Part shown: piece by piece, positions 4,207 through 58,144 of the stretch | Numbering within the stretch: position 1 is the stretch's first letter | Layout of the letters: every line of letters begins with the position of its first letter | Source of the DNA: Minisyncoccia bacterium | GTDB taxonomy: Bacteria > Patescibacteriota > Minisyncoccia > Phycocordibacterales > UBA918 | Reading direction: 5' to 3' | Length of the DNA stretch: 64,000 nucleotides | Assembly (NCBI GenBank): GCA_041750655.1 | Contig: JBGSYZ010000011.1 | Location: forward strand, 65,794-129,793 | Made by a program: the position numbers and the translations under genes | The notes under the pieces: generated by a model | The model's input: the letters and a program-made list of their open reading frames with translations, nothing else | Database searches by the model: none | What the model was told of the DNA's origin: nothing

Positions 4207-4294
4207 GTTAATTGTTAGTTACTAGCTTTTAGTCCTTAGTCCTTAGGAAATTTGCCGAAGCAAATTCTAAGCGCTACTAGCTAAGGACTAGGCG

Positions 4295-4603: not shown

Positions 4604-4745
4604 AGGTCTTTATCGTATTAAATTACTTGGTTTTACAACCCTTTTAACTTTCCAAACAAAAGAAGCATTACACCTCCTTCGTGCGAGTGACATTATATGT
4701 CAATGCGGTATAGTGTCAAAAGAATCATGTTTCCAGGAGGAGAAA

Positions 4746-5069: not shown

Positions 5070-5259
5070 TAGAAGTTAATTTGAGACTTGCTGGAGTGGC
5101 TAGAAATTACAGGAGCTGGAGCCGGGGGGCGCGACTGTTTGAGCGTTAGCGAGTTTCGCGCCCGCCGTAGTGTAAGCGACTTTATATGTCAAAGCACGAA
5201 GCATTCTCATCATTATTCACTTGCTCTCCGACCCCCTTTCTGGTATCATCGACCGCGAT

Positions 5260-5490
5260 ATGGAAACTTTATCGTCGGTGTTGCCGTACGTGCAAATCAT
5301 CCTCTCCATCATTCTCGTGACTGTAATTATGCTGCAACAGCGTGGTTCTAGTTTGGGTGGAGCTTTTGGTAGTGACAACTACAGTGCAACATTCAATCAA
5401 CGTCGTGGAGCAGAACTATTCCTCTTCCGCTTATCTATTGCCGTCAGTATTTTATTTGTACTCTCAGCGATCGCTTCCCTCGTTATCTAG
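5260..5490 (+). CDS. secG: preprotein translocase subunit SecG
   Basis: IMLQQRGSSLGGAFGSDNYSATFNQRRGAELFLFRLSIAVSILF matches the SecG signature (LLQ.GKG.GLGGAFG ... RG....L.R.T). A TTGCTC-17-TATCAT promoter lies just upstream. The start is taken at the internal Met (METLSS). Confidence 0.7.
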   Translation: METLSSVLPYVQIILSIILVTVIMLQQRGSSLGGAFGSDNYSATFNQRRGAELFLFRLSIAVSILFVLSAIASLVI

Positions 5491-5583
5491 CGACGGTTCC
5501 ATTCGTGGTTACGTTTCATCTTTTAGTATTCGTATTCACTAGTTTCAGCACTCCTGAATCGGTTATTTATAGCGCATTTATTT

Positions 5584-7335: not shown

Positions 7336-7351
7336 CAGTAACCATTATTAT

Positions 7352-18570: not shown

Positions 18571-19779
18571 TTATTCTACCTTGCTGTACTTCTCAATAAG
18601 CTCTTTATACACCCACGCGCTGGGGCGAATTTTACGCTCCAAAGTTTCGTAATCTATTTCTATCAACCCAAATTTTTTCTCAAACCCGAGTGCCCACTCG
18701 TAGTTATCCATCAAGGACCAGTACATGTGACCATGGACATCTATTCCTTCTTTGAGAGCTCGTTCAACACCCTCAACTTGTTTCGTAATGTACTCAGCGC
18801 GATCAGAGTCGTCATCATCAGCAATACCGGCTTCGGAAACATATAGAGGTTTATTATAGCGCGACATAAGAGCCAAGGCTTCATATATTCGTTCAGGAGT
18901 ATAATTCCAACCCATATCTGTTTTTCTATTCGTTAACTCTATACCATATTGTGAAGCTTGATAAAAATTTACACCGATTTCATCAGTATATCTATATACT
19001 CGACGTGTAAACCTATGATTTTGAAAGAAATTACTAAGTACTGCATGAAACTTATTTACAAAACCTTTTGGAATTAAATAAACATGTATATGTTTAACAA
19101 AACCAACTTTTGCATTCGGCTGGATATTTTTGATTCTTTTATAAGCAAGAATATGTGCTCTAGAAAGGTTCTTAACCACTTTAAAATAATTTAATAAAGT
19201 TAATGCCTTGGAACGTTTTTTTATAACTTTGCCAGTATAACTTCTTTGCCACGGTTTTTTACTAACTTTAAAAGGTGGCCACTCTCCATTGATCCAACCT
19301 TGTGTAGCAAAAACATTCGGTTCATTCATGGTAGAAAAATGGTCGCACAAATCCCCAAGTTCCGACGCGACAAAAACTGCATACCGAGCAAAAATTTCTG
19401 GTGAATCCTTTCTTTCGAATCCACCCGACTCCGAGAACCATAATGGCTGGGTAAAGTGCCAAATAGTTACGAAAGGTTTAAGGTTGCGCGCCTGAAGGGT
19501 GCGCAATACCTCCCGATAGTGTTCAATTGCCTCTTTATTAAACGTACCCTCTTCTGGTTCGATTCTAGCCCATTCTACGGAGAAACGATGAGCAGTATGA
19601 CCAAGTTCTTTAGCAAGATCAAAATCAGCCTCGAAGCGATGGTAGTGGTCACAAGCCCGGCCACAGGGCGGCACTCGTCCTTCGCGCGCGGCCTTCGCCC
19701 AATCACAATTTTCTATCCCACCTTCTACCTGATATGAAGCCGTGGCTGCGCCCCAGTAAAAATTCTTCGGAAATTTCAT
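18571..19779 (-). CDS. glycoside hydrolase family 1 (beta-glucosidase/beta-galactosidase-like)
   Basis: FYWGAATASYQVEGG is the GH1 N-terminal signature. The acid/base NEP lies in STMNEPNVF. The nucleophile region is YVSEAG. Confidence 0.8.
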   Translation of the reverse strand: MKFPKNFYWGAATASYQVEGGIENCDWAKAAREGRVPPCGRACDHYHRFEADFDLAKELGHTAHRFSVEWARIEPEEGTFNKEAIEHYREVLRTLQARNLKPFVTIWHFTQPLWFSESGGFERKDSPEIFARYAVFVASELGDLCDHFSTMNEPNVFATQGWINGEWPPFKVSKKPWQRSYTGKVIKKRSKALTLLNYFKVVKNLSRAHILAYKRIKNIQPNAKVGFVKHIHVYLIPKGFVNKFHAVLSNFFQNHRFTRRVYRYTDEIGVNFYQASQYGIELTNRKTDMGWNYTPERIYEALALMSRYNKPLYVSEAGIADDDDSDRAEYITKQVEGVERALKEGIDVHGHMYWSLMDNYEWALGFEKKFGLIEIDYETLERKIRPSAWVYKELIEKYSKVE

Positions 19780-19916
19780 ATGCTATATCGCTGCACCTTA
19801 CAGGTGCTGTACACCTTGTCTATATTTTGTTTACTTGCGTCACAAAATATTAGGCAAGGTCTTGCGAAAGCGTCCCACGCTTTCTCACCCCAATAAAAAT
19901 CTTTCGGAAATTTCAT
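19776..19916 (-). pseudogene. 46-codon upstream ORF that duplicates the first 10 codons of the downstream GH1 gene (MKFPKDFYWG... vs MKFPKNFYWGA); its stop overlaps the GH1 start (ATGA)
   Basis: Nucleotide repeat CCCCA(G/A)TAAAAAT(T/C)TT(T/C)GGAAATTTCAT at 19749-19779 and 19889-19916. I translated the second copy by hand: MKFPKDFYWGEKAWDAFARPCLIFCDASKQNIDKVYSTCKVQRYSI*. Confidence 0.45.
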
Positions 19917-31855: not shown

Positions 31856-32287
31856 CTATCTTTTGTACACCACAAAATGTGGTAGTTTATCCAAACCAAC
31901 ATAGTTAAACATCTTGTAGTTTGCCCGCCGAGCTGTACTTGAAAGTTGACGCTTTTTTAGATGTACTTTGGGAACGAAAGGATAAAAAATTATTTCCTGT
32001 TGATTTTTCCCCTGCTCAATCCATTTAAAATTAGCAATCAGTGGCGGGACCATATAACCTGATTTTGTTACTTTATCCATAATTTCCCAACCAGCACCAA
32101 ATATTTCTTTTTTGGGTTTTGACAGATTTGTTTTTACCTGTGCTCTAAATTCACACCCACTACACTGAACATCAAACAATGGGTAGCTGGGTGGCAAGAG
32201 CATTAACTCTTTAGAACAATTTGGACATCGCACTAAATTAACAACTTCCAATTCTCCGTCGTCACCTGATTTCTTATTTCCAGCCAT
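31856..32287 (-). CDS. hypothetical zinc-ribbon protein (143 aa)
   Basis: CPNC...CSGC four-Cys ribbon near the N-terminus. Confidence 0.35.
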   Translation of the reverse strand: MAGNKKSGDDGELEVVNLVRCPNCSKELMLLPPSYPLFDVQCSGCEFRAQVKTNLSKPKKEIFGAGWEIMDKVTKSGYMVPPLIANFKWIEQGKNQQEIIFYPFVPKVHLKKRQLSSTARRANYKMFNYVGLDKLPHFVVYKR

Positions 32288-34279: not shown

Positions 34280-34503
34280 ATAGATTTATTTTACTATATT
34301 ATCTGTTAGTGACTATTTTTGTAAAATAAAAAGGCTGAAATTATAGAAAGTTTATGGTACTCTATTGCCCACAGCAACATTGTTTCGTTGGAATATAGAG
34401 GTTCAAATCCTCAAACAATGGGTGGAGAAAGAAAGGGTGCTCGGGTGCCTTTGGCCGACAAAGGTCAAATTGAACTAGACAGCTTCTCCACTGCTGTCAA
34501 TTT

Positions 34504-34574
34504 TGCCGGATCGTCTAATGGTAGGACACATGGTTTTGGTCCATGGTATCTAGGTTCGAGCCCTAGTCCGGCAG
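34504..34574 (+). tRNA. tRNA-Gln (anticodon UUG)
   Basis: Cloverleaf folded by hand: acceptor TGCCGGA/TCCGGCA with U1:A72, anticodon stem CATGG/CCATG, loop TTTTGGT, T-arm CTAGG-TTCGAGC-CCTAG, discriminator G. CCA is not encoded. Confidence 0.8.
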
Positions 34575-34722
34575 CACAAACAAGGAGCAAAATGAGTAGC
34601 ATTTTGTGACTATGTTTTGCTAGCCTGACTAGGGCTCGAAAAGCTTTTGAGATAGATTTGACTGGAAGGAAAATATATCCAAAAGGTATACTGTCCATGT
34701 AATGGAAGAGCCCTCGAAAAGG
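34575..34722 (+). repeat. tRNA-Gln-linked repeat unit 1 (about 150 nt; inverted copy of the tRNA T-arm/acceptor 3' segment at its 5' side; degenerate att-like copy at its 3' end)
   Basis: The unit shares long identical stretches with unit 2 at 35277-35437. GACTAGGGCTCGAA is the reverse complement of the tRNA segment TTCGAGCCCTAGTC. Confidence 0.6.
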
Positions 34723-34868
34723 TTCGTCAGATATTTCTGAAAGAAATACCGACAACCTGTACTGCTCGTGTAACGAGAGAGGTCCCCAGTACGGCAACAA
34801 TATTGACTTTTATAAAAAAGTATTTTAAAGTACAGAAAGATTTTTAGATTTTTTCTTCTTGAGAGGAC

Positions 34869-35186
34869 ATGGTCATGACAGACAATAATGAAGTTGTGAA
34901 AGAGAAGCTTTTGCGACTTGCTCAGCAACGTGCCAGAAACTCAGTCATCGCATTCAGGCGCCAGAGTGATTCAGGTATTCACGAAGGGAGGGTTCGTGCC
35001 GACAAAGTCTGGGGTGGACAACAACAAGAACTTGCAGCAACACTGCCCGAGGACGACCCACTTCGCGAGGTGGTTGAGTTTATCGGGAAACTCGATGTGA
35101 TTAGCCCGCCGCAACATCTCGTCTCCAAGATTCCCCAGAAATCAGGAGTAACACTAGGTGATGTGTGGCCTGATTCTGAAGATTGA
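34869..35186 (+). CDS. hypothetical protein (105 aa), cargo ORF between repeat units, visibly higher GC than flanks
   Basis: Clean ORF followed by the strong terminator at 35203-35246. No family recognised. Confidence 0.45.
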   Translation: MVMTDNNEVVKEKLLRLAQQRARNSVIAFRRQSDSGIHEGRVRADKVWGGQQQELAATLPEDDPLREVVEFIGKLDVISPPQHLVSKIPQKSGVTLGDVWPDSED

Positions 35187-35202
35187 GTGAACTCTGAACT
35201 CA

Positions 35203-35246
35203 AGAGCCGTTTAGTACCGAAAGGGGAAAACGGCTCTTTCATTTTA
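35203..35246 (+). terminator. Rho-independent terminator (GAGCCGTTT...AAACGGCTC + T-run)
   Basis: Read directly. Confidence 0.65.
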
Positions 35247-35276
35247 TATATAAGTTCCAACCTCGTCCCAGACGGC

Positions 35277-35437
35277 CAGCACAAACAAGGAGCAAAATGA
35301 GTAGCATTTTGTGACTATGTTTTGCTAGCCTGACTAGGGCTCGAAAAGCTTTTGTGACAGATTCGACCAGAGAGAGAATATGTCCAAAAGGTATACTGGT
35401 CATGTAATGACCGAGACCCCTAGTCCGGTCCGGCAGC
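35277..35437 (+). repeat. tRNA-Gln-linked repeat unit 2, ending in direct repeat of tRNA 3' end (GAGACCCCTAGTCCGGTCCGGCAGC)
   Basis: Near-identical to unit 1 over CAGCACAAACAAGGAGCAAAATGAGTAGCATTTTGTGACTATGTTTTGCTAGCCTGACTAGGGCTCGAAAAGCTTTTG. Confidence 0.65.
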
Positions 35438-35539
35438 CAATTAATATTAACTTTATTTTTCAACGCTGGTTCGGTTCGAGTACTTAGTTAAAACAGAAAA
35501 CCCACCGACGGCGGGAATTCCGTGGCGGGTATGTGTGCC

Positions 35540-35746
35540 TCAGCCGTGCAGAGTGTATTTACCGACCGAGTTAAAAATCAGCGACACTTCCTGAGGATTG
35601 AAGCCCAGATCAGCGACTTCTTTAAGAGTGAGGATGGTCAGCTGCCCCCAGCCAGTGATTCCTTCTTTTGTAAGACGGGAAACAATATCTTCAGAAAGTC
35701 CCATTTTAGAAACAGACAGGTTGTCGTCTCGTTCACTCCAGGGCAT
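35540..35746 (-). CDS. hypothetical small protein (68 aa), possible helix-hairpin-helix fold; cargo ORF
   Basis: LSEDIVSRLTKEGITGWGQLTILTLKEVADLGF resembles HhH/RNAP-alpha-CTD-like motifs. It lies between repeat units 2 and 3. Confidence 0.35.
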   Translation of the reverse strand: MPWSERDDNLSVSKMGLSEDIVSRLTKEGITGWGQLTILTLKEVADLGFNPQEVSLIFNSVGKYTLHG

Positions 35747-35896
35747 GTTAGTCTCCTATTCAAGTTATCTTTCGAAAAACTAACACGATTTTACAAAAGT
35801 TTCAACATCATCCCAGACAGCCAGCTTGAGAAAATACGCACCGCATGGGGCGATTTTCATTCAAGCTGCCGGAAGAAAGTGCTGGGAGCACTTTCG

Positions 35897-35998
35897 TCTA
35901 GGGCTCGAAAAGCTTTTGAGTTATTTCTGGAAGTATTGAACAGAAATAGCTAAAAGGTATACTGGTCATGTAATGACCGAGACCCCTAGTCCGGCAGC
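35897..35998 (+). repeat. tRNA-Gln-linked repeat unit 3 (3' two-thirds of the unit), ending in direct repeat of tRNA 3' end (GAGACCCCTAGTCCGGCAGC)
   Basis: It matches units 1 and 2 from TAGGGCTCGAAAAGCTTTTG onward. Confidence 0.6.
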
Positions 35999-36077
35999 AC
36001 TTAACAAAAAAGTAGAGCTTTTCTGTCTTCTATGCATAGTAAGTTGAAAACAAATCTACTCGGTATATACTGCGGGT

Positions 36078-37013
36078 ATGAAAATTCTTATCTATTTTGT
36101 GTTTGTACTAGTGATTATTAGCGGATCTTATGCTGCATATAATTTTTATACTACACCGGCAGCAGTACCTACTCCAACTCCAATAGTAGCCACTTCCACA
36201 CCAACAGTAGTTGGCCAAGCCACCTATCAATGTGACGGTGATAAAATTCTTGAAGCTACTTTTTTTGAAGACGCCGCTAAAGCCGTCGCATCAGTACCAG
36301 GAGAGCCACCAGTACCAATTGGCTCAGTCAATCTATCAATTAATGGCGTCCCGAGTGCGGCCCTTATGCAAACCATTTCTGCCGACGGTGCCCGCTACGC
36401 TACTCCTGATGACTCATTTGTATTTTGGAGCAAAGGCAACGAAGCCTTAGTGCTAGAGGAAGGCGAACAAAAAAATTATACCGGGTGTATTGTTATAGCG
36501 AACGATCCTGGCGGCTTACCTGAAATATATGCTAGTAGCACCCAAGGGTTTTCGCTCCGCTACCCAGCTGATTTTACAGTGGATGATACCTACCAGTACG
36601 ATGACTTGGGACCAGACAAAATTATTCCGGGTATCAAATTTACCATTGCTGAGTCAATGGCGACTAGTACTAATCTAAGCTCTAACAGCTATCTTAGTAT
36701 CGAACATATTGAAAGTCCCGATGCGACCTGCACACCAGAAGTATTCTTAAGTTCTGTACATGGCAGCAGCACTCCAGTTACCAGCACCAATGATGTCACC
36801 TATCTAATGGCTTCCTCTACCGAGGCGGCGGCTGGGAATCGGTATGAAGAGTACGTATTTACCATTGAAGGTTTAGCCCGCTGTCAGGCCATTCGTTATT
36901 TTATTCACTACGGAGTATTTGAAAATTATGAACCTGGAACAGTTACTGAATTTGATACAGCCAGCCTACTATCTGAATTTGATAAAATCCGCGATACGGT
37001 GATTTTTAACTAG
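36078..37013 (+). CDS. secreted hypothetical protein with Thr/Pro-rich linker (311 aa)
   Basis: Signal/TM followed by a TPAAVPTPTPIVATSTPT linker. Confidence 0.4.
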   Translation: MKILIYFVFVLVIISGSYAAYNFYTTPAAVPTPTPIVATSTPTVVGQATYQCDGDKILEATFFEDAAKAVASVPGEPPVPIGSVNLSINGVPSAALMQTISADGARYATPDDSFVFWSKGNEALVLEEGEQKNYTGCIVIANDPGGLPEIYASSTQGFSLRYPADFTVDDTYQYDDLGPDKIIPGIKFTIAESMATSTNLSSNSYLSIEHIESPDATCTPEVFLSSVHGSSTPVTSTNDVTYLMASSTEAAAGNRYEEYVFTIEGLARCQAIRYFIHYGVFENYEPGTVTEFDTASLLSEFDKIRDTVIFN

Positions 37014-37019
37014 GTTAGA

Positions 37020-37670
37020 TTACACTCTCTCCTCCAAATGTTTGTGCGCATTGAATGAAACCACTTCCCATGGGCAGACGTTTTTCTCAGTCTCGCCAAT
37101 GTAACGAACGTGAGTAACTCCGGAGTTTTCGTAACGAAGAATTTTTAATAGAAGTGGCGCAGCTTTGAGAACATTTATTCCTTTATCCTGGCAAAGATGA
37201 GCGATGAAAAAGTTGGTGAAAATGGAGTGGGAAACAACCACTACCCTATCTCCTGTGTGTAACTTTGCAAAATAATCGCGTGCTCGGAAAATACGCTCCG
37301 AAAACTCTTTCTTGGTTTCAATCTGGTCAGTTATATTTTCAGGTAGCAGATTGAAGTACCAACGCATTAAATAAAACATTGATTGCGGACCATAATGAGA
37401 TTTTCCGTATAAATAATCTGGAACCTTTAGTTCACTCACATCTTCCAACCACGTTGCTTGTAATTCTGTTGCGTATTCAAGAAAATGGGTTGTTTCTCTA
37501 GCGCGAGTGTAGTGGCTAGTATAGAGATGAGTAGGCTCAAACTCTTGAATAGTGCGGACTAGGCGGGCCACCTCAGCAGCACCAGCTATAGAAATAGATT
37601 CGGTTGGTGGTTGGTATATGTGGCGAGCATTAGCTTTGGTCTCACCGTGTCGTACGAGAAGAAGCTCCAT
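37020..37670 (-). CDS. histidine phosphatase superfamily protein (phosphoglycerate-mutase-like, branch 1)
   Basis: LLVRHGETKAN contains the RHG catalytic motif at the N-terminus. Confidence 0.7.
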   Translation of the reverse strand: MELLLVRHGETKANARHIYQPPTESISIAGAAEVARLVRTIQEFEPTHLYTSHYTRARETTHFLEYATELQATWLEDVSELKVPDYLYGKSHYGPQSMFYLMRWYFNLLPENITDQIETKKEFSERIFRARDYFAKLHTGDRVVVVSHSIFTNFFIAHLCQDKGINVLKAAPLLLKILRYENSGVTHVRYIGETEKNVCPWEVVSFNAHKHLEERV

Positions 37671-37675
37671 GTATT

Positions 37676-38728
37676 TTATACGTTAGATTTTTCAGACAAT
37701 TCCATAATCGCTATTTCTAACGGTAACTGCGGTAATGTTGCAAATCGCATTTGTTCTGAAGCTTCAAGCAAGCGTACCAAGGTATGAGAATTTAGTGAGC
37801 CAACGGCAGTACTCATTTCTTTTACACTTACTTGGTCTTCTTCAGGGAGCTGAGCGAGTAATGTCTCTGCTAGGGGTGCTTTATTGCGTAGCAACATAAC
37901 TAAGCGAACACGTTCGAGCAGTAGACGCATAAAAAGCCGCATATCGACATTTTCTTCTTGAGCCGAGTGGACACTAGAAAGACCTAAACTAGCGTCATTA
38001 GTATTAAGCGCTACCACTAAATCAGACAGCGTTTTGGTTTTAGGAGCTCCAATAATGGCGGCGACTTCGTCAGCATCAGCCTTAGTGTCGCTTGACGCAG
38101 TAATTACTTTTTGAGTAATCCCGAGAGCATCGCGAAACGAGCCGTCGGCGGCAATAGCAATCAAATCAGCAGCAGCGGCGTTAAGCTTGAACTTCTCTTT
38201 CTTGGCCACATCAATGACCGTATCGCGTAAATCTGCCCGGCTGGGATTATGGAACGTAAAAACCTGACACCGTGAGGTGATGGTCGGGAGTAGTTTGTCT
38301 TGTTCGGTGGTAGCCAGAATAAACAATACGTGTGCTGGCGGTTCTTCTAGAGTTTTCAGAAGCGCATTAAAGGCTTCCTTAGTGAGCATGTGAACTTCAT
38401 CGATGATGTACACCTTGAACGGTGACTCGTACGGTAGTGTGTGTACCGCTTCGCGCAATTCACGAATGTCATCGACACCGCGATTACTAGCCGCGTCTAT
38501 TTCGTAAATATCAATATCACTGGCTCCAACGGCTGATGCAAAAATTCGCGCCGTGGTGGTCTTGCCGGTTCCGCGGCCGCCACAGAAAAGTAGGGCGTGG
38601 GGAATTTGCGCTTTAGCTATCGCCCCCTCAAGTACTTTTACAATATGATCTTGGTTACGGATATCGGCAAATGTATTTGGGCGATACTTTCGGTACAGCG
38701 CCACATTCGGTTCAGTATTTTTACTCAT
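37676..38728 (-). CDS. dnaX: DNA polymerase III subunit gamma/tau (short form)
   Basis: Walker A GGRGTGKTT, DEVHML (Walker B) and TSRCQVF (the SRC motif). The LYRKYRP start is typical. Confidence 0.85.
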   Translation of the reverse strand: MSKNTEPNVALYRKYRPNTFADIRNQDHIVKVLEGAIAKAQIPHALLFCGGRGTGKTTTARIFASAVGASDIDIYEIDAASNRGVDDIRELREAVHTLPYESPFKVYIIDEVHMLTKEAFNALLKTLEEPPAHVLFILATTEQDKLLPTITSRCQVFTFHNPSRADLRDTVIDVAKKEKFKLNAAAADLIAIAADGSFRDALGITQKVITASSDTKADADEVAAIIGAPKTKTLSDLVVALNTNDASLGLSSVHSAQEENVDMRLFMRLLLERVRLVMLLRNKAPLAETLLAQLPEEDQVSVKEMSTAVGSLNSHTLVRLLEASEQMRFATLPQLPLEIAIMELSEKSNV

Positions 38729-50827: not shown

Positions 50828-50995
50828 AACAAAAACAGTCGTTTAAAAAACTTACCTCCGAGCGCCCTACGCTCTACTAATTCGGTCATTATATCATAGG
50901 ACAAAATGTGGGTGTTTATAACTCAAAGATAATCTGGTAGACTCTTGTGACTCGCCTCGGACAAGGATGATTTTGTATCCTTTTGTTCCCATAGT

Positions 50996-51077
50996 GCCGC
51001 GGTGGCGGAATTGGTAGACGCGTACGACTCAAAATCGTATCTCGCAAGGGGTGAGGGTTCGATTCCCTCCCGCGGCA
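50996..51077 (+). tRNA. tRNA-Leu (anticodon CAA), type II with long variable arm
   Basis: Folded by hand: acceptor GCCGCGG/CCGCGGC, anticodon stem TACGA/TCGTA, loop CTCAAAA, variable arm TCTCGCAAGGGGTGAG, T-arm GAGGG-TTCGATT-CCCTC, discriminator A. Confidence 0.8.
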
Positions 51078-51128
51078 CTATGGGTGGAAATGATATACCG
51101 TTCGACAGTCTCCCAGACTGTCTCACCA

Positions 51129-51179
51129 ACTCAAAATCGTATGCTTCACGGCATGAGGGTTCGACCCCCTCCCGCGGCA
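51129..51179 (+). repeat. duplicated 3' portion of tRNA-Leu (anticodon-loop 3' side through acceptor 3' end), diverged in variable arm and T-loop
   Basis: ACTCAAAATCGTA...GAGGGTTCGACCCCCTCCCGCGGCA parallels tRNA positions 34-76. No matching 5' half lies upstream. Confidence 0.5.
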
Positions 51180-51223
51180 CAAATGGATTGGAGAAAAGTA
51201 TTAATTGAAAGTGATGTCTTATA

Positions 51224-51256
51224 AAAAAACCGTGGCGCATGCGCCACGGTTTTTTA
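51224..51256. terminator. bidirectional intrinsic terminator (A-run, CCGTGGCGCATGCGCCACGG, T-run)
   Basis: Read directly. It lies between the tRNA-Leu locus and the convergent pyrE. Confidence 0.65.
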
Positions 51257-51257
51257 G

Positions 51258-51944
51258 TCAAAAGATCCACTTGTCAGTAACCCACGATTCATCGTGGGGA
51301 TTTTCCAGCCATGAACGGATTAAAACTTCATACTCTGTATCAATCATACGTTCCTCGACAGCTGCTTCGAGCATCTGCTTAAAGGTACAGAGAGTGAAAA
51401 CCGCAACCCCAGCTTCATCAGTTTCTTTAATCATCTGAGGAAAACCATATGAGAAGACTGTGAGTGCGGTAGTTACTTTGCAGTTAAGCAGTTCACGCAA
51501 TGGTTTTATTGCTCCAAGCAAGCTCCCCGCAGTGGTGGTCATATCTTCAATCACCAGAGTATTTATATCTCGAAACAAGTCTACATCACCAGCAAACCAA
51601 CTTTGGTCACCATGACCTTTTGGTTCTTTCCTGACTCCCAGATAGGACTTTCCTAAACGTTCTGCCAGTATGGCTGCAAAACCAATTCCGCCAGTTTCAA
51701 CCGCAGCAATGCCTGAAAAAGATTCATTACGCTGTAGAACGAAATTTTGGTATCGATTAATTACCAAGCTTCGAAGAATTTTATTGGACAAAACCTTTCG
51801 GCAGTCACCGTACACTCCTGGAGACTTAATCCCTTTGGAAAACTTAATTCCCTTGCCTTTGGTAAAGCCTGTATAGCCAGACTCAACCAGTTGGTGAGCA
51901 ATCTGTTCTTGTTGTGATGTATTTCCTAATAATGTTAGGCTCAT
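51258..51944 (-). CDS. pyrE: orotate phosphoribosyltransferase
   Basis: Type I PRTase PRPP-binding motif VIEDMTTTAGS. I take the internal Met (MSLTLL...), which is preceded by GGGAGA. The longer ORF is an N-terminal read-through. Confidence 0.75.
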   Translation of the reverse strand: MSLTLLGNTSQQEQIAHQLVESGYTGFTKGKGIKFSKGIKSPGVYGDCRKVLSNKILRSLVINRYQNFVLQRNESFSGIAAVETGGIGFAAILAERLGKSYLGVRKEPKGHGDQSWFAGDVDLFRDINTLVIEDMTTTAGSLLGAIKPLRELLNCKVTTALTVFSYGFPQMIKETDEAGVAVFTLCTFKQMLEAAVEERMIDTEYEVLIRSWLENPHDESWVTDKWIF

Positions 51945-52002
51945 GATAATCTCCCGTGTTTGTTTCTGTGTAAAGACTAGCAGAGAGTAATTGTAAAAAC
52001 CA

Positions 52003-52923
52003 TTGACTTTGCTACACTCGAGTGACATGAATAAACCAAAAATAATCGTCGTAGTCGGTCCGACTGCCTCTGGGAAAACCTCATTGTCTGTAGCACTGGC
52101 ACGGAAGTTTAATGGTGAAATTATTTCCGCCGATTCTCGACAAGTGTACAAAGGATTGGATATCGGTACTGCCAAAGCAACTTCTAAAGAAATGGCGGAT
52201 GTGCCTCATCATCTCATTGATGTAGTCGATATCGACACTACCTACTCAGTCACAAATTTTAAAGTTGATGCCAATGTGGCAGTTAACCGTATTCTTAACC
52301 GAGACAAACTCCCTATTATCGCTGGTGGAACTTTTTTTTATGTTGATGCTCTTCTCGGCAAATCCCCTATTTCTGAAGTACCGCCAAACGAAGCACTCCG
52401 AACGGAGTTAGAAAAAAAAGACAAAAAAGATTTGTACAAAGCTTTAGAAAAACTAGACCCTCGACGCGCAGCTGAAATTGATCCTGACAACAAAAGAAGG
52501 TTGGTGCGTGCGCTGGAGATAATAGCGGCTATTGGCGCTGTACCGAAAAAAGACCCAAGTCCATCTCTTTATGATGTACTCACTGTTGGTATCAAAATAG
52601 ACAAAGAAGAATTGCGAGAGCGATTTAAAAAGCGAGCTGAAGAGTGGCTTGTAGGAGGATTTAGAGACGAAGTAGAAAAACTTTTGGCCGATGGCGTTAC
52701 CCGAGAACGTCTGCAAGAAATCGGATTTGAGTACATGCTGATGCTAGAGTTTATAGATGGTGACATTAGTGAGTCTGAATTTATTCAGAAGTTTATTGAG
52801 AAGAACTGGCAGTACGCCAAGCGACAGCTTATGTGGCTTAAACGGGATCAAAGCATAGTTTGGTTTAATCGAACTGACCGTGACGCGATATTTGAGAAAG
52901 TGCAGTCATTTTTGGCAGATTGA
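52003..52923 (+). CDS. miaA: tRNA dimethylallyltransferase
   Basis: P-loop GPTASGKTS. The following ISADSRQVYKGLDIGTAK is typical of MiaA. Confidence 0.9.
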   Translation: MTLLHSSDMNKPKIIVVVGPTASGKTSLSVALARKFNGEIISADSRQVYKGLDIGTAKATSKEMADVPHHLIDVVDIDTTYSVTNFKVDANVAVNRILNRDKLPIIAGGTFFYVDALLGKSPISEVPPNEALRTELEKKDKKDLYKALEKLDPRRAAEIDPDNKRRLVRALEIIAAIGAVPKKDPSPSLYDVLTVGIKIDKEELRERFKKRAEEWLVGGFRDEVEKLLADGVTRERLQEIGFEYMLMLEFIDGDISESEFIQKFIEKNWQYAKRQLMWLKRDQSIVWFNRTDRDAIFEKVQSFLAD

Positions 52924-53027
52924 TTTAAAGCGGTTTTTTAAGTAGTATGTTGAGCACATAAATAAACCGTGTTTAGTAAGTACATACGGAGATTTGTGCG
53001 TTAAAGAATTTAATTTAAGTTAGAGTG

Positions 53028-53195
53028 TGTACTGCACTCAACTTAAACAATGTGACGGCAAGAGGAGACAAGCGAAAGTTGGGGTAAGTTTTTCACTCAA
53101 CTTAAATTGCGTCCCAGACATTGTCTGCAAGAGGATGTGAGTAAGAGTTGGCGTGCGGATTGCACTCAACTTAAATCGCGCCCCGCGCAATTTAA
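53028..53195 (+). repeat. three direct copies of CACTCAACTTAAA at about 63-68-nt spacing, each followed by a local hairpin, immediately upstream of tRNA-Trp; preceded by an inverted partial copy (AATTTAAGTTAGAGTG)
   Basis: Read directly. Units 1 and 2 also share GCAAGAGGA and end in AGTTGG. Confidence 0.55.
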
Positions 53196-53266
53196 GGGCC
53201 TATAGTTTAGTGGTAGAATGCTGGTCTCCAAAACCAGCGGCCGTGGTTCGAGTCCACGTGGGCCCG
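53196..53266 (+). tRNA. tRNA-Trp (anticodon CCA)
   Basis: Acceptor GGGCCTA/TGGGCCC (one G-U), anticodon stem CTGGT/ACCAG, loop CTCCAAA, T-arm CGTGG-TTCGAGT-CCACG, discriminator G. CCA is not encoded. Confidence 0.85.
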
Positions 53267-53465
53267 CAGCAGCAAAAGAAAATGACCGAAACAGATGTTT
53301 CGGTCATTTTCTTTTAGCAAGCCAACTGCTTGGCTTGCGGCTGCCGCGGGAGGCGGAGCGCTGTGAGAAATTCATTTCTAGAATTTCGAACCGCGAGCCG
53401 GGGTCGAAGGTACTTAGTAGAATCAGAGCAAAGCGAATGATTATACTTAGTAACCTGTGACCGCC
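53267..53465 (+). repeat. tRNA-trailer structured repeat, copy A (terminator hairpin + conserved hairpin AGCAAGCCAA-CTGC-TTGGCTTGC + segment complementary to tRNA-Trp 3' end + about 100-nt conserved tail)
   Basis: Aligned by eye to copies B and C. GGCTGCCGCGGG is complementary to the tRNA-Trp 3' end CCCGCAGCAGC with one mismatch. Confidence 0.65.
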
Positions 53466-53528
53466 ATTGAAAACATCCAGCATACACTGGGTATTTTTTA
53501 CCCCACATATCAGTTCAGAACTTTAGTA

Positions 53529-53556
53529 TTGACAAAATATTATTTTAGTGTATTAT
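53529..53556 (+). promoter_or_regulatory. sigma-70-type promoter TTGACA-16nt-TATTAT driving the small high-GC ORF
   Basis: Read directly. A GGAGCA RBS lies 8 nt before the ATG at 53592. Confidence 0.6.
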
Positions 53557-53591
53557 GTGTTTCAGGTAATACAACGGTAGGAGCACCGACA

Positions 53592-53840
53592 ATGGAAGAT
53601 ACCGACCTCACCATACAGCAGATGGATCGCGGACCCTTCGAGGGCAAGTGGTTCTGTCACCGCAACGAAGGCATGGAGTACCTCCATTCCGACGGCTCGT
53701 GGCAGATGATGGCTGGCAAAACGGCCTACTTCGACTCCGAAGAGGACATCGAGGCCCTGCTCGACCGGCTGGACGAGGACGCCGGACAGGCCTACCTCGA
53801 CTTCCAGGAAGAACAGGTAGGTCGCACGGGCTATCCGTGA
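53592..53840 (+). CDS. hypothetical acidic small protein (82 aa) of atypically high GC; MEDTDLTIQQMDRGPFEGKWFCHRNEGMEYLHSDGSWQMMAGKTAYFDSEEDIEALLDRLDEDAGQAYLDFQEEQVGRTGYP
   Basis: I chose the internal start because it has a consensus promoter and an SD. The GC content is visibly far above the flanks (about 60% by eye, not computed). The overlapping antisense and out-of-frame ORFs here are artefacts of the high GC. Confidence 0.5.
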   Translation: MEDTDLTIQQMDRGPFEGKWFCHRNEGMEYLHSDGSWQMMAGKTAYFDSEEDIEALLDRLDEDAGQAYLDFQEEQVGRTGYP

Positions 53841-53993
53841 TTCGACCAATCGGCTCCCAACAAGCCGTCCACCACTCTTTGAAAGAGTCGGTTGGGCGGC
53901 TCTTTTGTTTTTATGTCACAAACTCCCGCAACACCTGAATACTCGACTTGATACACTCCTTCTCCCTATACAGTTCTGAAAGCCACATTTCTT

Positions 53994-54183
53994 GCCCGCC
54001 GAGGTACAAAAGAAAAAACTGATGCTTAAGCATCAGTCTTTTCTTTTGTAGCAAGCAAACTGCTTTGCTTGCGTGCCTCGGCGGGAGACGGAGACATGTT
54101 TCTTCTCCTTTCAAGATAAGAAATAGTCGAGTCCGGGGAGGAAGTTCTTATGAGCGTAAGCGAATTAGAAACTTGACCCCGCC
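53994..54183 (+). repeat. structured repeat, copy B (no tRNA upstream; the long-range stem pairs GCCCGCCGAGGTAC with GTGCCTCGGCGGG)
   Basis: Same architecture as copies A and C. Hairpin 1 is AACTGATGCTTAAGCATCAGT. The conserved hairpin is GTAGCAAGCAAA-CTGC-TTTGCTTGC. Confidence 0.6.
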
Positions 54184-54209
54184 AAAAATATTATAAAACA
54201 CAAAAATCC

Positions 54210-55298
54210 TTACCAAGCTACGTGAAGGTGAGTACCGCTACCAGCATTGTGTATCAAAGCTTCTCTTGCTCCGTTAGACTTGGCCCACTGCTGAGCAGCT
54301 TGCATTTGTGCTTGTGTCCCCACAAAATCTGCCGCTCGGCCAGTTAAATGGTATGAGGTTGAAACCCCGCCAGCATTGGCATTTTGGGTTGCTGTCCGAT
54401 ATCCGCTAGTAACAGTTAAACCAAAATTATTTGCAATATATTGCACATTACTTACAATACCACTATCAAATTGTCTGCCACTATAACTAGTTAGTGAACC
54501 ACTAGGACTAACTGTAGAAGTAAATCCACTATTAAATACACACGAACCAAATGCGTCAAAAGTATAGCCGGGTGGGCAACTACCCCCGGGTGACTGCAGT
54601 ATCGGCCCAGAAGCAACCACACACGAACCAAATGCGTCCATGGTATACCATTGTGGACACTGGCCTCCTGCTGAAGGTAACACTACCGTTTGAATACACG
54701 TGCCAAATGAATCCATAGCATACCCAAGTGGACAATGACCTCCTGGTGAAGGTAAAACTGACTGCTGCTGGTTGGTTGGGTCAAACGGTTGAACAGCAAT
54801 TACCATTTGCCACTCAGATGATCCAGGCAAAACAGCTGTTCCGTCATTTAATTGAACCTGACTTGAACAAGTAATTTGATTCATTTGATTCCACGGCATT
54901 GGGGAGTTGGTACCAAATTGCACTTCACCGTTTGGCAACAAAGACTTAAGCATCACGTCAATGACAAGCCACGCGGTGAGAATAATGATGAGACCAATCA
55001 GCACGTTGGTCATTACCCCTTTCCCTTTTTTAACTTGTGCGGCATTTCCAGCTGAACTAAGCATAAGCCACCCAGCATATATAAAAATAATTACTGAAAT
55101 TCCGACAGCCAAAACAATGATTATATCAGTGACGTTGTTAGCTAGTTGAACAATCTGACAGGTACCACAATCATCACCCGAACAAGGAACCAGAGGATTC
55201 GTCTGGGCACCAGTACTAAACGGTACAAATAAAACAAAAAGAAAAAAGAAAAAAGAAAATGAGATGATTTTATTTGCTGCAGAAAGTGAACAATACAT
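54210..55298 (-). CDS. secreted peptidoglycan hydrolase: N-terminal Cys-rich two-helix (T4SS/conjugative-pilin-like) domain, three GGxCPxGYxxDxFGxC repeats, C-terminal peptidase M15 (zinc D-Ala-D-Ala carboxypeptidase/endopeptidase) domain
   Basis: M15 motifs SYHLTGRAADF (SxHxxGxAxD) and THLHVAW (HxH). The N-terminal PLVPCSGDDCGTCQIV plus two hydrophobic helices are shared with the adjacent paralog. Confidence 0.6.
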   Translation of the reverse strand: MYCSLSAANKIISFSFFFFLFVLFVPFSTGAQTNPLVPCSGDDCGTCQIVQLANNVTDIIIVLAVGISVIIFIYAGWLMLSSAGNAAQVKKGKGVMTNVLIGLIIILTAWLVIDVMLKSLLPNGEVQFGTNSPMPWNQMNQITCSSQVQLNDGTAVLPGSSEWQMVIAVQPFDPTNQQQSVLPSPGGHCPLGYAMDSFGTCIQTVVLPSAGGQCPQWYTMDAFGSCVVASGPILQSPGGSCPPGYTFDAFGSCVFNSGFTSTVSPSGSLTSYSGRQFDSGIVSNVQYIANNFGLTVTSGYRTATQNANAGGVSTSYHLTGRAADFVGTQAQMQAAQQWAKSNGAREALIHNAGSGTHLHVAW

Positions 55299-55307
55299 AG
55301 GAATTCA

Positions 55308-56366
55308 TTATGGCATCGGAGCTTGGCCCGCCATACCTAGAATGTTGTTTACATAGTTTCTAGTTTCAGCATAGCCGGAGTTGGCTGTACACTGCCACCA
55401 TGTTTGTCCGGGACAGGTCACACTTTGATTGAGTGCCCTTGGGCCACCATTGTAATACGCAAGAGCATTGGCCACATTACCACTACTGGCTTGTAGTCCT
55501 TGTCCAAAGTATGTCACTCCTAGCTGCATGTTTATTTGTGGGTGCGAAGTGAGATATGACTGTATTTGTGAATTGCTCATACCAGATAAATCACAAAGAC
55601 CAGTTTGTGAGCATAGTTGACTTGCAGTGCCTGGCATTATTTGAAAGATTCCAGCTGCTCCCGCGGGACTAATCGCATTAGGATTGTACCCAGACTCTTG
55701 GTACATTTGCGCTTGCAAAATCCTACAGTACGCGCCCAGACCTTGTGAGGAAGCAATGCTACACAACTGTGTCGCATACGGATCATTTGGGTTATAAGCT
55801 ACGCCGGCGGCTGTTGCCAATTGTTGCGGTGTCATTTGTGTCGCATTTAAACCAGTCGCTGTCACTCGGGGCCAGTTACTCGACCCGGGCAGATGTGCAA
55901 TACCGTCACTTAGTGGAACTTGGTTAGAACACGACACCTGATTCCATGGTAACCACTGGCCAGCAGACATCTGGACTTGACCACTATTTTTTAGAAGTGC
56001 TTTCATGCCTGTATCAATAATAAGCCAGGCCACTAACATTAAAATAAGACCGATTAAAACATTCTTAAGCATGTTCTTGGCTCGAGTGTATTCCGATGGG
56101 TTGCCACCAGAGATAAGAAGATTGAATCCTCCCCAGGCTGCGAGCAGGACTACCCCCACAATCATTATCATAATGATAAATCGCAATACCCGGTTGCCGA
56201 GAACCACAATTTGGCACGTACCGCAGTCAGTACCCGAGCAAGGCACCAGGCCGCCTGTATCTCCCACTAGTGTGTTACCAGGAATACTTTGAGCCAAGAC
56301 AAACATTGGCAGTGCCAAAGTTAAAAAACCAAGAAAATATACGAGGCCGCGCTTCATAAAATGCAT
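55308..56366 (-). CDS. secreted peptidoglycan hydrolase: N-terminal Cys-rich two-helix (pilin-like) domain fused to lytic transglycosylase (SLT/GH23) domain
   Basis: SLT motif AQMYQESGYNPNAISPAGAAGIFQIMPGTA (ES...GxxQxM). The N-terminal GGLVPCSGTDCGTCQIV plus two TM helices are paralogous to the upstream gene. Confidence 0.65.
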   Translation of the reverse strand: MHFMKRGLVYFLGFLTLALPMFVLAQSIPGNTLVGDTGGLVPCSGTDCGTCQIVVLGNRVLRFIIMIMIVGVVLLAAWGGFNLLISGGNPSEYTRAKNMLKNVLIGLILMLVAWLIIDTGMKALLKNSGQVQMSAGQWLPWNQVSCSNQVPLSDGIAHLPGSSNWPRVTATGLNATQMTPQQLATAAGVAYNPNDPYATQLCSIASSQGLGAYCRILQAQMYQESGYNPNAISPAGAAGIFQIMPGTASQLCSQTGLCDLSGMSNSQIQSYLTSHPQINMQLGVTYFGQGLQASSGNVANALAYYNGGPRALNQSVTCPGQTWWQCTANSGYAETRNYVNNILGMAGQAPMP

Positions 56367-56638
56367 GTATACTAAAATCGTACCACAGGGCCTAATAAAA
56401 AACTTTTCGATATACCCCTTTTGTGGTAACGTATGCCAACGAATTTGCTCCGTAAATTCGTTGGTTCACAATCTAAGCGTTCGAACCAAATTAAATATCT
56501 GCGTCGGTGGATGAAACAAAAACTGCTTTTTGTTTCATCTGGCGCCAGCTTAGCTGGCAGACAGCGATGTGAACGAATGTGAGCAGCTGGCAAGTGGGCC
56601 AGCACCCGCATTTGTTCACACTCTGTGTGACAACACAT

Positions 56639-56724
56639 GCGTCGGTGGTGGAGTGGTCTATCACATCAGACTGTAAATCTGACGGCTTATGCCTTCGCTG
56701 GTTCGAATCCAGCCCGGCGCACCA
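56639..56724 (+). tRNA. tRNA-Tyr (anticodon GUA), long variable arm, CCA encoded
   Basis: Acceptor GCGTCGG/CCGGCGC (one G-U), anticodon stem TCAGA/TCTGA, loop CTGTAAA, T-arm GCTGG-TTCGAAT-CCAGC, discriminator A, then CCA. Confidence 0.85.
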
Positions 56725-56919
56725 AGGTATAAGAAAAATCACTGGAATTCATTCCAGTGATTTTCTTATAGCAAGCAAACTGCTTTGCTTGCGTACCTTG
56801 GTGCGAGGCGGAAGTATGTTTTTCATTCATTCCTAGAATGAAAAACAGCTGAGCCGGGGTCGAGAGTACTTAGCAAAATAAATGCAAAGCATTTATTTTG
56901 CTTAGTAACTCGTGACCAC
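56725..56919 (+). repeat. tRNA-trailer structured repeat, copy C (terminator hairpin ATCACTGGAA-TTCA-TTCCAGTGAT + conserved hairpin AGCAAGCAAA-CTGC-TTTGCTTGC + GTACCTTGGTGCG complementary to the tRNA-Tyr 3' end + conserved tail)
   Basis: Aligned by eye to copies A and B. The tail shares GAGCCGGGGTCGA(A/G)GGTACTTAG and CTTAGTAAC(C/T)(T/C)GTGACC with copy A. Confidence 0.65.
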
Positions 56920-56983
56920 ATAAACCTTTATAATATACTATAAATAGTGTATTATTTTGTACGAAACAGTTTGGAGAAAATCG

Positions 56984-57121
56984 ATGATGTCTGAACGCGA
57001 ATATCAACGTCGCCTTGCGCCTCTTCTCGAAGAGTTGCAGAGGGTAAAGACCCAGAAGCAGAAGGACGAGATCGAGCAAAAGATGCAAGCCCTCGACCGG
57101 CAAGCGAACGGCAGCAAGTAG
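56984..57121 (+). CDS. hypothetical coiled-coil small protein (45 aa): MMSEREYQRRLAPLLEELQRVKTQKQKDEIEQKMQALDRQANGSK
   Basis: It directly follows repeat copy C. TATAAT/TATTAT -10-like elements and a GGAGAAAA RBS lie upstream. GC is elevated relative to the flanks. A hairpin plus T-run terminator lies downstream. It shares the AGTGTATTAT promoter-region motif with the ORF at 53592. Confidence 0.4.
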   Translation: MMSEREYQRRLAPLLEELQRVKTQKQKDEIEQKMQALDRQANGSK

Positions 57122-57622
57122 AGCGCAACCGCCGACCCAAGAAAGCCCCTGGCTCTCTCACGGGTCAGGCGGTTTTCTTTTACACTAATCCCACCTTCTC
57201 ACACACGTATCTAGGTAAGAAACAATACTCACTTTCTATAATTGCAGTTCTAACTTCACGCATTCCTGCGCACGCGTATAAAAATGAGCATCCTTTGGAT
57301 GCCATTTTTATTGCGTGTGCCGGGAGTACGAGACTAATGTCTCGTACGGCTGGATTCGAAGCTCCGGACGATGTTTTGAGAGCTTCATAGCTAGCAAAAC
57401 GAGGAGGAGCCGTCCAAGAAACCGAGCCTAGTTTATGAACGTAGTGAAATAAAATAGCCGGTATTCGGGGACGAAGGAAGCCGGCACACAAATTATATAC
57501 TCCCATTTTGGAGAATTTAAAATTGGCTTTAATTACGTATTGTATGAGTTAACGTCATTCTCAACTTCTTGCCAATTGCTTAAGACTATGCCAATAATAG
57601 CCGCAGAGAAGGGAGAACGAAA

Positions 57623-58144
57623 ATGAATATAAGGATTGTGGGCGCTAGCCTTCTGGTATTCGTGTGCAGCTGTGCTGTGCCAGACCAAAAACCATTTGAC
57701 TACCCGCCCAAGGAGGCTCGATCCTGCTTGGCAAAAAGTTTAACCACTATGAAGGAGGACCCCAAAAACGCGCTTACGATTTTTGATGTGCCTAGCCTGT
57801 CTGCAAAAATTCGTAAGTATAGCCAAAACGAGGACATTACCGACGAACAAGTTGCTATCGAACTCGTGGCTATGGTATCTAAATACCAAAACGATTTACC
57901 ACGGTTGCTGCCCCCAGGCTTGATACATGTTTCAATGTACACTTCTATGAGTGATAACACGTATACTATGCAAGCCAATGTACCAGTACACACGGCAAAC
58001 AAAAAACAATTCCTGGTGACGTTGGTTCCCACAAACAATTCTTGTCGCCTGAAGGAGATGACTATAAACGGTTTCTCGTTTTCAGCACTAATTGCTGGAG
58101 TTTTAGCACCAGCTGATGATTACGAGAACTTTTATCATGACTAA
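57623..58144 (+). CDS. hypothetical secreted/lipoprotein-like protein (173 aa)
   Basis: Signal peptide with Cys at LLVFVCSCA, which is a possible lipobox. Confidence 0.4.
   Translation: MNIRIVGASLLVFVCSCAVPDQKPFDYPPKEARSCLAKSLTTMKEDPKNALTIFDVPSLSAKIRKYSQNEDITDEQVAIELVAMVSKYQNDLPRLLPPGLIHVSMYTSMSDNTYTMQANVPVHTANKKQFLVTLVPTNNSCRLKEMTINGFSFSALIAGVLAPADDYENFYHD

Follow-up and report, generated by a model that had tools for sequence, protein, structure and literature searches.

We describe here an array of small modules that follows a tRNA-Gln gene in a 64-kb stretch of a Minisyncoccia genome (contig JBGSYZ010000011.1); the window, below, means this whole stretch, and L-numbers denote related loci that were compared with it. 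The anchor of the array is a tRNA-Gln(UUG) gene on the plus strand (34504 to 34575), which was found by ARAGORN, scores 57 bits against the Rfam tRNA model and does not encode CCA. Its portion from the T-loop to the 3′ end (X0, TTCGAGCCCTAGTCCGGCAGCA, 34555 to 34576, plus strand) is the sequence that is repeated along the array, which we parse as tRNA/X0, unit U1, unit U1b, repeat X1b, a first gene cassette with the open reading frame (ORF) ORF105, cassette-end site X′, unit U2, X followed by CCA, a second gene cassette with the antisense ORF68, X′, unit U3, X and flank. The array ends at about 36001, and seven tRNA-3′-end-like repeats were counted in total from tRNA-Gln onwards. The initial annotation of this DNA had proposed a tRNA-Gln 3′ end followed by an array of repeat units, and this is borne out by both tRNA searches as well as by the repeats themselves: positions 34562 to 34713 and 35267 to 35418 are 88% identical, and a 43-nt tail (35386 to 35428 against 35952 to 35994) is 100% identical.

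The non-coding modules, or U units, all lie on the plus strand and share a core of about 75 nt that we describe by the pattern CTCGAAAAG-N30-60-TACTG-N4-TGTAA-N5-GAG, with four matches in the window and none in 100 shuffles. That is, the core consists of CTCGAAAAG, a long irregular hairpin (P2), GTRTACTG, a short hairpin (P3) with a TGTAA loop, and N-GAG. Unit U1 (34577 to 34712) comprises spacer hairpins, an 18-nt arm complementary to X (34623 to 34640) and the core, a three-way junction (34635 to 34710). The arm, GCCTGACTAGGGCTCGAA, recurs in U2 (35328 to 35345) and is 94% complementary to the tRNA segment TTCGAGCCCTAGTCCGGC, which runs from T-loop to acceptor; an inverted complement of the T-arm and acceptor inside the units had been noted before and is found in both U1 and U2. 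As read from the sequence, the tail of U1 stops after GAGCCCT and is fused to the next core, with a similar junction in L078. Because this fourth core (34713 to 34781) is fused to U1, U1 has no clean tRNA copy at its end. The initial count of three units thus becomes four cores, and the statement that each unit ends in a copy of the tRNA 3′ end fails for the first. Unit U1b (34713 to 34799) is made up of that fourth core, a different subtype with a GGTTCGTC/GACAACC P2 stem, and the degenerate tRNA-end repeat X1b (34779 to 34799).

The other two units do end in clean copies of the tRNA end, as had been stated. U2 (35282 to 35439) is an 88% copy of U1, with its core at 35340 to 35415 and a tail (X2R, 35413 to 35436) that holds a 5-nt TCCGG duplication and is followed directly by CCA (35437 to 35439). 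U3 (35827 to 36001) is the complete canonical form, in which a hairpin region is followed by an acceptor-complement arm (GCTGCCGGA, 35865 to 35873), a hairpin P0 (35875 to 35895), a stem P1 (5′ strand at 35898 to 35906), the core (35904 to 35981; 85 bits with a covariance model) and a tail identical to the tRNA end (X3R, 35979 to 35998). Its start was first placed at 35897; since the hairpin, the acceptor-complement arm and P0 precede the core, the unit in fact begins at about 35829. Besides X0 and the clean tails of U2 and U3, three degenerate tRNA-end-like repeats are present (34779 to 34799, 35252 to 35281 and 35797 to 35826), so that every module is bounded on both sides.

Between the units sit the two predicted genes, ORF105 (105 aa, 34869 to 35186, plus strand) and the antisense ORF68 (68 aa, 35540 to 35746, minus strand). 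Cassette 1 (34800 to 35281, plus strand) opens directly after the repeat with a promoter-like TTGACT-17-TAAAGT (34803 to 34831), continues with ORF105 and a terminator-like hairpin (35219 to 35240) and ends in a cassette-end site X′ (AAGTTCCAACCTCGTCCCAGACGGCCAGCA, 35252 to 35281), all on the plus strand. In cassette 2 (35440 to 35826, minus strand), ORF68 has a terminator-like hairpin on its own strand (35501 to 35515), while the X′ site (AAGTTTCAACATCATCCCAGACAGCCAGCT, 35797 to 35826) is on the plus strand. The cassettes had been called promoterless; these signals, which come from consensus scans only, speak otherwise, and a promoter-like counterpart (TTGACT..17..TATAAA) was recognised by eye at the same position of the cassette in L109. 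The elevated GC of both ORFs holds up. ORF105, at 0.50, exceeds all 44 host genes (mean 0.425, maximum 0.488), and ORF68, at 0.473, exceeds 40 of the 44. Neither ORF has a Pfam match, and no homologue of ORF68 was found, making it an orphan.

ORF105, by contrast with this orphan, belongs to a family of about 20 homologues, one of which, 83% identical, is found in L109 to L112 in a like array behind tRNA-Gln. The homology is not confined to the gene: window positions 34802 to 35280 and L109 positions 3935 to 4405 share 84.6% nucleotide identity over 480 nt, an interval that starts at the first base behind one repeat and includes all of the following one. In both the window and L109 the junctions read ...GGCAGC(A)|. 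The X′ consensus, AAGTT..AAC.T..T.CCAGAC.GCCAGC, is distinct from the tRNA ends of both hosts and has no inverted partner inside its cassette. It was found in at least 120 metagenome stretches, where the sites are co-oriented, lie about 250 to 2100 nt apart and number up to six per locus; nearly all tRNAs seen in these loci are tRNA-Gln, on the same strand and upstream of X′. The GCGGGAATTCCGT hairpin region of cassette 2 likewise recurs, in antisense mini-cassettes of L027 and L161. Cargo elsewhere includes NUDIX, SET, Cdd1 and OmdA proteins and, in L099, a restriction-modification-like set. In that locus (3472 to 7736, oriented), two units with tRNA-Trp tails stand 4.1 kb apart, and between them are two S-adenosylmethionine-dependent methyltransferases and a 681-aa protein with a faint MunI-like match, an ensemble that resembles restriction-modification cargo.

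The U core as a tRNA-linked family

The core is not local to this array. Searching a species-representative genome collection with the exact pattern, we found it in 108 genome stretches, nearly all from Patescibacteria, with hosts among the Paceibacteria, Kaiser-, Taylor- and Adlerbacteria and similar metagenome-assembled genomes (MAGs). In about 85 of the 108 loci a complete tRNA gene of the same strand precedes it by 47 to 90 nt, and at least 13 isoacceptor types are represented. In about 55 loci, the last 15 nt of that very tRNA recur exactly, immediately behind the core; counting the core's own terminal (T)TCGAG, the duplicated stretch extends from T-loop to discriminator. In the pattern, the closing CTC/GAG pairs in fact represent the T-loop with its complement: they become TTC/GAA in L109, where the tRNA has TTCGAAT, and because the closing pairs follow the T-loop in this manner the pattern undercounts the family.

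In canonical order, a module behind X consists of an A-rich stretch, a GC hairpin and a T-run, a complement of the acceptor strand, the perfect hairpin P0, a complement of the T-stem strand, the core and the copy of X. Most copies are solitary and cargo-free and sit in housekeeping contexts. The units had initially been taken for simple att hairpins; they are instead a large family with a three-way-junction core, found for the most part alone behind tRNA genes, and our literature search turned up no description of such elements. We also considered several known classes. A phage origin of the core was rejected, as the pattern had no match in viral contigs. With Rfam 15, only tRNAs reach the gathering score, and permissive scans of 34300 to 36200 and 50900 to 57700 gave chance-level matches. 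Hammerhead and other small ribozymes were set aside for want of an Rfam match and because order and lengths of the junction strands misfit the hammerhead core by eye. An origin of the arm from a tRNA primer, like a retroviral primer-binding site, does not apply, since the arm complements the genomic trailer and not CCA; arm and trailer together form a palindrome centred on the terminator loop. Nor do the units look like miniature inverted-repeat transposable elements or repetitive extragenic palindromic sequences: they have no terminal inverted repeats, hold a fixed position and orientation behind tRNAs and carry 15- to 22-nt copies of the tRNA end.

The fold of the core was assessed in an alignment of 111 copies that were gathered by the exact pattern, which makes the invariance of the junction strands partly a product of construction. 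P3 is paired in 98.6% of cells, with all four pairs changing on both sides, as do five of the six pairs at the base of P2. The covariation score of 0.561 compares with at most 0.161 when partners were slid and 0.165 in shuffles. Across 110 cores, the strand in tRNA sense folds more stably than its complement in 93 (Wilcoxon p = 4e-12) and contains 145 G.U pairs against 62. Covariation and strand bias together indicate that the core fold is under selection and strand-specific. Around the core, P0 is present in 77 of 110 units versus 0.7% of shuffles, and a separate acceptor-complement arm of at least 7 nt in 24 of 110 versus 6% in swapped controls. Because this arm is restricted to those 24, a full tRNA-like fold, in which the three-way junction caps a T-stem-like P1 that is accompanied by P0 and an acceptor-like stem, holds only for a subset. 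U3 is predicted to fold in this manner (RNA, -62.8 kcal/mol and z of -7.6; DNA, z of -8.0). We regard the three-way-junction core as a candidate new structured RNA or DNA element.

Such a fold raises the possibility that the U units are tRNA-linked non-coding RNAs that serve the host, in termination, in processing or as decoys, with the gene cassettes as unrelated insertions that made use of the duplicated tRNA end. The strong covariation in P2 and P3, the greater stability and G.U content of the sense strand, the acceptor-like stem, T-stem-like stem and junction predicted for U3, a hairpin loop (UGUAA) that is invariant in the 111 pattern-selected copies, and the solitary, cargo-free, housekeeping settings of most copies would all suit this role. 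We nevertheless consider it unlikely. The separate acceptor-arm complement is seen in only 24 of the 110 units, a terminator-like hairpin with a T-run usually stands between tRNA and core, and the distribution of the units, to which we now turn, is not that expected of a host RNA.

First, the presence of the core differs at orthologous tRNAs among relatives. In a syntenic Leu(CAA)-Trp-Tyr cluster, a pattern core follows Trp only in L035, Tyr only in L096 and Leu in L007, and in the window it follows none of the three. The tRNA-Gln locus is polymorphic as well: a Kaiserbacteria MAG (L057) that is 93.6% identical in this region has a U3-like unit (95%) and a U1-like unit without any cassettes, and in L109 the ORF105 cassette occupies a different position of the array than in the window. 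Second, several core subtypes are stacked behind one tRNA (three in L105; types A, B and a third in the window), for which reason local tandem duplication was rejected as the sole source of arrays; near-identical local duplicates do occur in L104, L026 and L109. Third, the covariance model picks up decayed core copies at 30 to 42 bits. Finally, one copy resides at a protein gene with a target duplication. This fifth, diverged core of the window (19779 to 19876; 42 bits, E of 2e-8; element 19751 to 19914, minus strand) lies at the 5′ end of a GH1 glycosidase gene, between 29-nt direct repeats (26/29) derived from the start of that gene, with no tRNA near; the upstream copy of the repeat opens a 45-codon frame that ends at the true start. 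Each of these four observations counts against a host-serving RNA.

The same data speak for movement. Near-identical type-A cores are found behind tRNA-Gln, -Trp, -Arg, -Lys and -Met in different genomes, with arms and tail that fit the local tRNA, and the shared discrete cassette, the differing arrays and the X′ arrays support the view that small modules were inserted one after another, site-specifically, at the tRNA 3′ end, much as first suggested. Across many tRNA types, one and the same nucleotide past the discriminator marks the boundary. Among 44 loci with no CCA in the tRNA gene, CCA comes after the tail copy in 9 (about 20%), and CCA is encoded in 21% of unit-free tRNA genes versus 7% of unit-bearing ones. 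These figures fit insertion just after the discriminator, which would push the host CCA and its flank outwards. Copying of the tail from mature tRNA was rejected: the roughly 20% of tails with CCA equal the 21% of unit-free genes, so the host gene's own CCA is the better explanation.

A further signal was seen behind this CCA. A near-perfect palindrome, A(T/C)TCG(T/A)GCTAGCACGA(A/G), follows the tail CCA in L050, L053, L071, L004, L076, L024 and L109, with both the tRNA (Trp or Gln) and the genome varying from case to case. In L053 it has the tail on one side and a serine recombinase gene on the other; in L109 it precedes recombinase-less cargo. Possibly it is an operator, or else an element end of a second type.

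Serine recombinases at the sites and proposed growth of the array

That no recombinase is in sight, as the initial annotation remarked, holds for the window ORFs that we compared with Pfam, 50 in all (ORF105, a DpnI-like ORF and 48 of the 54 ORFs with 150 aa or more). The same annotation had pictured integrase-mediated insertion with the enzyme encoded elsewhere. The second half of this stands, inasmuch as an enzyme is found beside these sites in relatives; the first is not supported, for it is a large serine recombinase (Resolvase, Recombinase and Zn_ribbon_recom domains) and not a tyrosine integrase. We encountered it in 15 related loci, 8 of the listed 120 X′ loci (by ORF clustering) and 7 of the 108 unit loci (by tblastn), nearly always on the strand opposite the tRNA.

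Of note is where the gene ends. In all eight loci in which its 3′ end lies inside the locus, the frame overlaps X, X′, a tRNA or a tRNA-end-like fragment: the tRNA-Gln(CTG) gene itself in L032; a tRNA-Ser in L222; a free-standing X in L161 (..LLPDRDSN.., the reverse complement of the tRNA-Gln end); a U-unit tail behind tRNA-Gln in L014 (..WLADRDSN.., again the reverse complement of the tRNA-Gln end) and behind tRNA-Ala in L060 (..DPTGLE..); X′ in L234 (..WLAVWYEVGT.., the reverse complement of X′); and tRNA-end-like fragments in L176 and L094. Because the frames run through exactly these sites, we infer that crossover takes place at the tRNA 3′ boundary and that X′ is the distal arm of an element. 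A complete element is seen in L161: X is followed by the recombinase gene, roughly 3 kb of cargo and X′, after which come an antisense mini-cassette, whose GC hairpin is also that of cassette 2 in the window, and a degenerate X′. In L014 and L060 a recombinase element is inserted at a U tail, and in L079 the recombinase is followed, farther along, by X′, U and X.

On this evidence, we think it rather likely that recombinase-less derivatives of serine-recombinase elements have accreted in tandem at the tRNA-Gln 3′ boundary to form the region, and the large serine recombinase of the relatives is probably what inserts the modules. Each module, gene cassette or non-coding U unit, bears a tRNA-3′-end-like arm at its distal end, which is X, identical to the host tRNA end, in U units and the consensus X′ in gene cassettes. 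After insertion, this distal arm, now beside the displaced host flank, would re-create a target-like site on which the next module could land, such that the array would grow outwards, in the distal direction. The recombinase, whose gene points towards the tRNA, would be supplied in trans by autonomous relatives. Distal growth agrees with the state of the repeats, since the proximal ones are the more decayed (X1b, the U1/U1b fusion) and the distal X is perfect.

A number of points weigh against this accretion by a serine recombinase. The 50 window ORFs contain no recombinase domain, and the gene is absent from most unit-bearing loci. Serine recombinases normally do not re-use attL or attR; serial insertion would thus require that the distal arm regenerate a working target. 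Near-identical cores stand behind different tRNAs with arms that are always locally matched, for which a fixed attP is a poor explanation, and the GH1 copy duplicates a protein gene start away from any tRNA. Moreover, a conserved fold that is specific to the sense strand has no role in a plain double-stranded serine-recombinase reaction, and the three-way junction and the tRNA-complementary arms of the U units are left unaccounted for. The unexplained fold, the matched arms and the GH1 copy keep alternatives alive that invoke RNA, a single-stranded substrate or homologous exchange.

One way to give the fold a place within the accretion is to regard the U unit as a new class of non-coding, tRNA-mimicking mobile module that takes an active part in recombination, as RNA or as folded sense-strand DNA. 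We offer this tentatively. Possible roles include regeneration of the landing site, insulation of the tRNA, or action as an antisense to the 3′ end of the read-through recombinase mRNA. A precedent for an inverted target copy comes from CTXφ-type elements, which integrate as folded single strands; their inverted copy of the target folds into a duplex that mimics the chromosomal target, and XerCD acts on it at dif. U units, too, hold an inverted copy of their target; a single-stranded substrate would here be hypothetical.

The layout of the array calls integrons to mind, a resemblance that had been drawn from the start. Integron arrays and clusters of attC sites lacking integrase consist of small, co-oriented cassettes that each carry a 3′ recombination site of their own, and attC is a structured site that is variable in sequence, conserved in fold and strand-specific. 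If a tyrosine recombinase acted here on folded single strands, U would be an attC-like hairpin, the tRNA end the attI, and cassettes would be captured as circles. In keeping with such a system, X and X′ sites all share the orientation of the tRNA, both in the window and L109 and across at least 120 metagenome loci, and end each cassette at its 3′ side, U forms an imperfect hairpin that pairs X with its complement, and its fold is strand-specific; furthermore, L120, L137 and L180 have an Xer-like tyrosine recombinase gene, accompanied by LexA, some 2.7 kb past their arrays. These are, however, only three loci, probably syntenic. Apart from them, no IntI or Phage_integrase match was found beside arrays in the 108 and 120 related loci or in the 50 window ORFs. 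The junctions of the window and L109 are without the attC boxes RYYYAAC/GTTRRRY and their G|TT crossover, X′ has no inverted partner within its cassette, and it is a gene for a serine recombinase that physically overlaps the sites. Different from integron cassettes, those described here have promoter- and terminator-like signals of their own, ORF68 runs antisense, the cassette site mimics a tRNA 3′ end and the anchor is a tRNA in place of attI. Three of the four integron features tested were not found. The array is integron-like in layout but no integron, and a tyrosine-recombinase system of this kind strikes us as very unlikely.

We give similarly little credence to the idea that no dedicated recombinase is involved, natural transformation and homologous recombination through the tRNA, the cores and the 30-nt X′ supplying the modules, and palindrome-driven deletions and duplications shaping the arrays. 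In its favour, the window encodes DprA and pilins, each module has conserved repeats on its flanks, the fusion of U1 with U1b and the junction in L078 have the appearance of deleted X-spacer-complement palindromes, and L104, L026 and L109 hold near-identical local duplicates. Against it, the position of the boundaries relative to the discriminator is constant to the nucleotide over many tRNA types, subtypes unrelated to one another pile up at a single site, the frames of recombinase genes pass through these very sites, and repeats of 15 to 30 nt are at the lower limit for RecA-dependent exchange.

For the favoured accretion by a serine recombinase, the closest known logic, by analogy, is that of the composite islands of the staphylococcal cassette chromosome (SCC), with tycheposon-type accretion at tRNAs also close. 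In SCC and SCCmec, large serine recombinases (Ccr) insert elements at the 3′ end of rlmH/orfX; the elements are bounded by direct repeats with the target 3′ end and stack in tandem, and pseudo-SCC elements without recombinase are thought to be mobilised in trans. Here, direct repeats with the target 3′ end are present likewise (seven in the window; the exact 15 nt in about 55 loci), as is polymorphism in presence, absence and order (L057, L109 and the Leu-Trp-Tyr cluster). The recombinase at the element end was not found among the window ORFs scanned and is present beside the sites in 15 related loci, overlapping them in all eight that can be resolved. Unlike SCC, the targets are tRNAs, the modules measure 0.15 to 1 kb as opposed to tens of kb, many of them are non-coding and structured, the recombinase frame passes through the att site, and the hosts are Patescibacteria. 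Tycheposons integrate at tRNA genes, leaving partial tRNA repeats, and form stacked, decayed remnants with small cargo; what defines them is a lineage of tyrosine recombinases, and the integrase is present in most copies, at one end and facing inwards (bioRxiv 10.1101/2020.12.28.424599). In contrast, most modules here are without enzyme, the enzyme associated with the sites belongs to the serine recombinases, and a non-coding module of conserved structure is part of the system; our scans of window ORFs and cargo segments found neither the tycheposon tyrosine recombinase nor the hallmark replication and mobility genes.

These data suggest that many tRNA genes of Patescibacteria are platforms where small cassettes and non-coding modules accumulate and are exchanged between lineages. 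The genomes of Patescibacteria are tiny and, by the general view, poor in mobile elements; platforms of this type would constitute a route of gene gain in a major uncultured radiation. If U units do take an active part in recombination, they and the X′-tagged, promoter-bearing mini-cassettes would make these tRNA genes integron-like capture platforms run by such an enzyme, and a capture system that builds arrays at tRNA ends in this way would be a second, independent solution to the integron problem. Recombinases with short natural targets are also of interest for genome engineering.

Other tRNA genes and neighbours in the window

All four tRNA genes of the window (Gln, Leu, Trp and Tyr) carry such material, and because all four are affected, the array is best seen as one instance of a genome- and lineage-wide phenomenon. 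The tRNA-Leu(CAA) gene is followed by a 52-nt duplicate (83%) of its portion from anticodon arm to 3′ end (50996 to 51180 for gene and duplicate, plus strand). The duplicate lies 102 nt downstream of the tRNA, with a hairpin, ACAGTCTCCCAGACTGT, in between, and looks like the scar of an element that crossed over farther 5′ in the tRNA. The island behind tRNA-Trp (53196 to 54195, plus strand) comprises a terminator, P0, a type C core, a small ORF (53594 to 53842; GC of 0.60) and a second type C module. That behind tRNA-Tyr (56639 to 57500, plus strand) has a terminator, P0, an arm that is 100% complementary to the tRNA end (56794 to 56805), a type C core, a small ORF (56985 to 57121; GC of 0.54), a tRNA-end-like site (57247 to 57273) and a type E module. 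The type C core reads GAGGCGGA..GAGCCGGGGTCGARRGTACTTAG..GTGACC and the type E core CTCCGGACGATGTTTTG..GAGGAGGAGCCG; neither has an Rfam match. The P0 hairpins of the Trp and Tyr islands are near-identical (AGCAAGC..GCTTGCG), and both islands hold further tRNA-end-like sites.

Several neighbouring genes are worth recording. Between the Trp and Tyr islands, two adjacent genes on the minus strand (54210 to 56366) combine a type IV secretion pilin-like domain with domains of cell-wall hydrolases (M15 peptidase and SLT transglycosylase) in fusion. A 143-aa ORF (31856 to 32287, minus strand) with a DpnI-like, methyl-directed restriction domain precedes the tRNA-Gln array by about 2 kb. Elsewhere, a protein of 225 to 245 aa with an N-terminal helix-turn-helix-like stretch and no Pfam match is encoded immediately upstream of tRNA-Gln on the same strand (L124, L154, L178 and L191; a fragment in L162). 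In relatives (L045, L057, L013 and L098), dnaX and a histidine phosphatase gene are upstream of tRNA-Gln on the same strand; in the window they are downstream of it (36078 to 38728) on the opposite strand, an arrangement that suggests either an inversion beside the array or a different tRNA-Gln locus.

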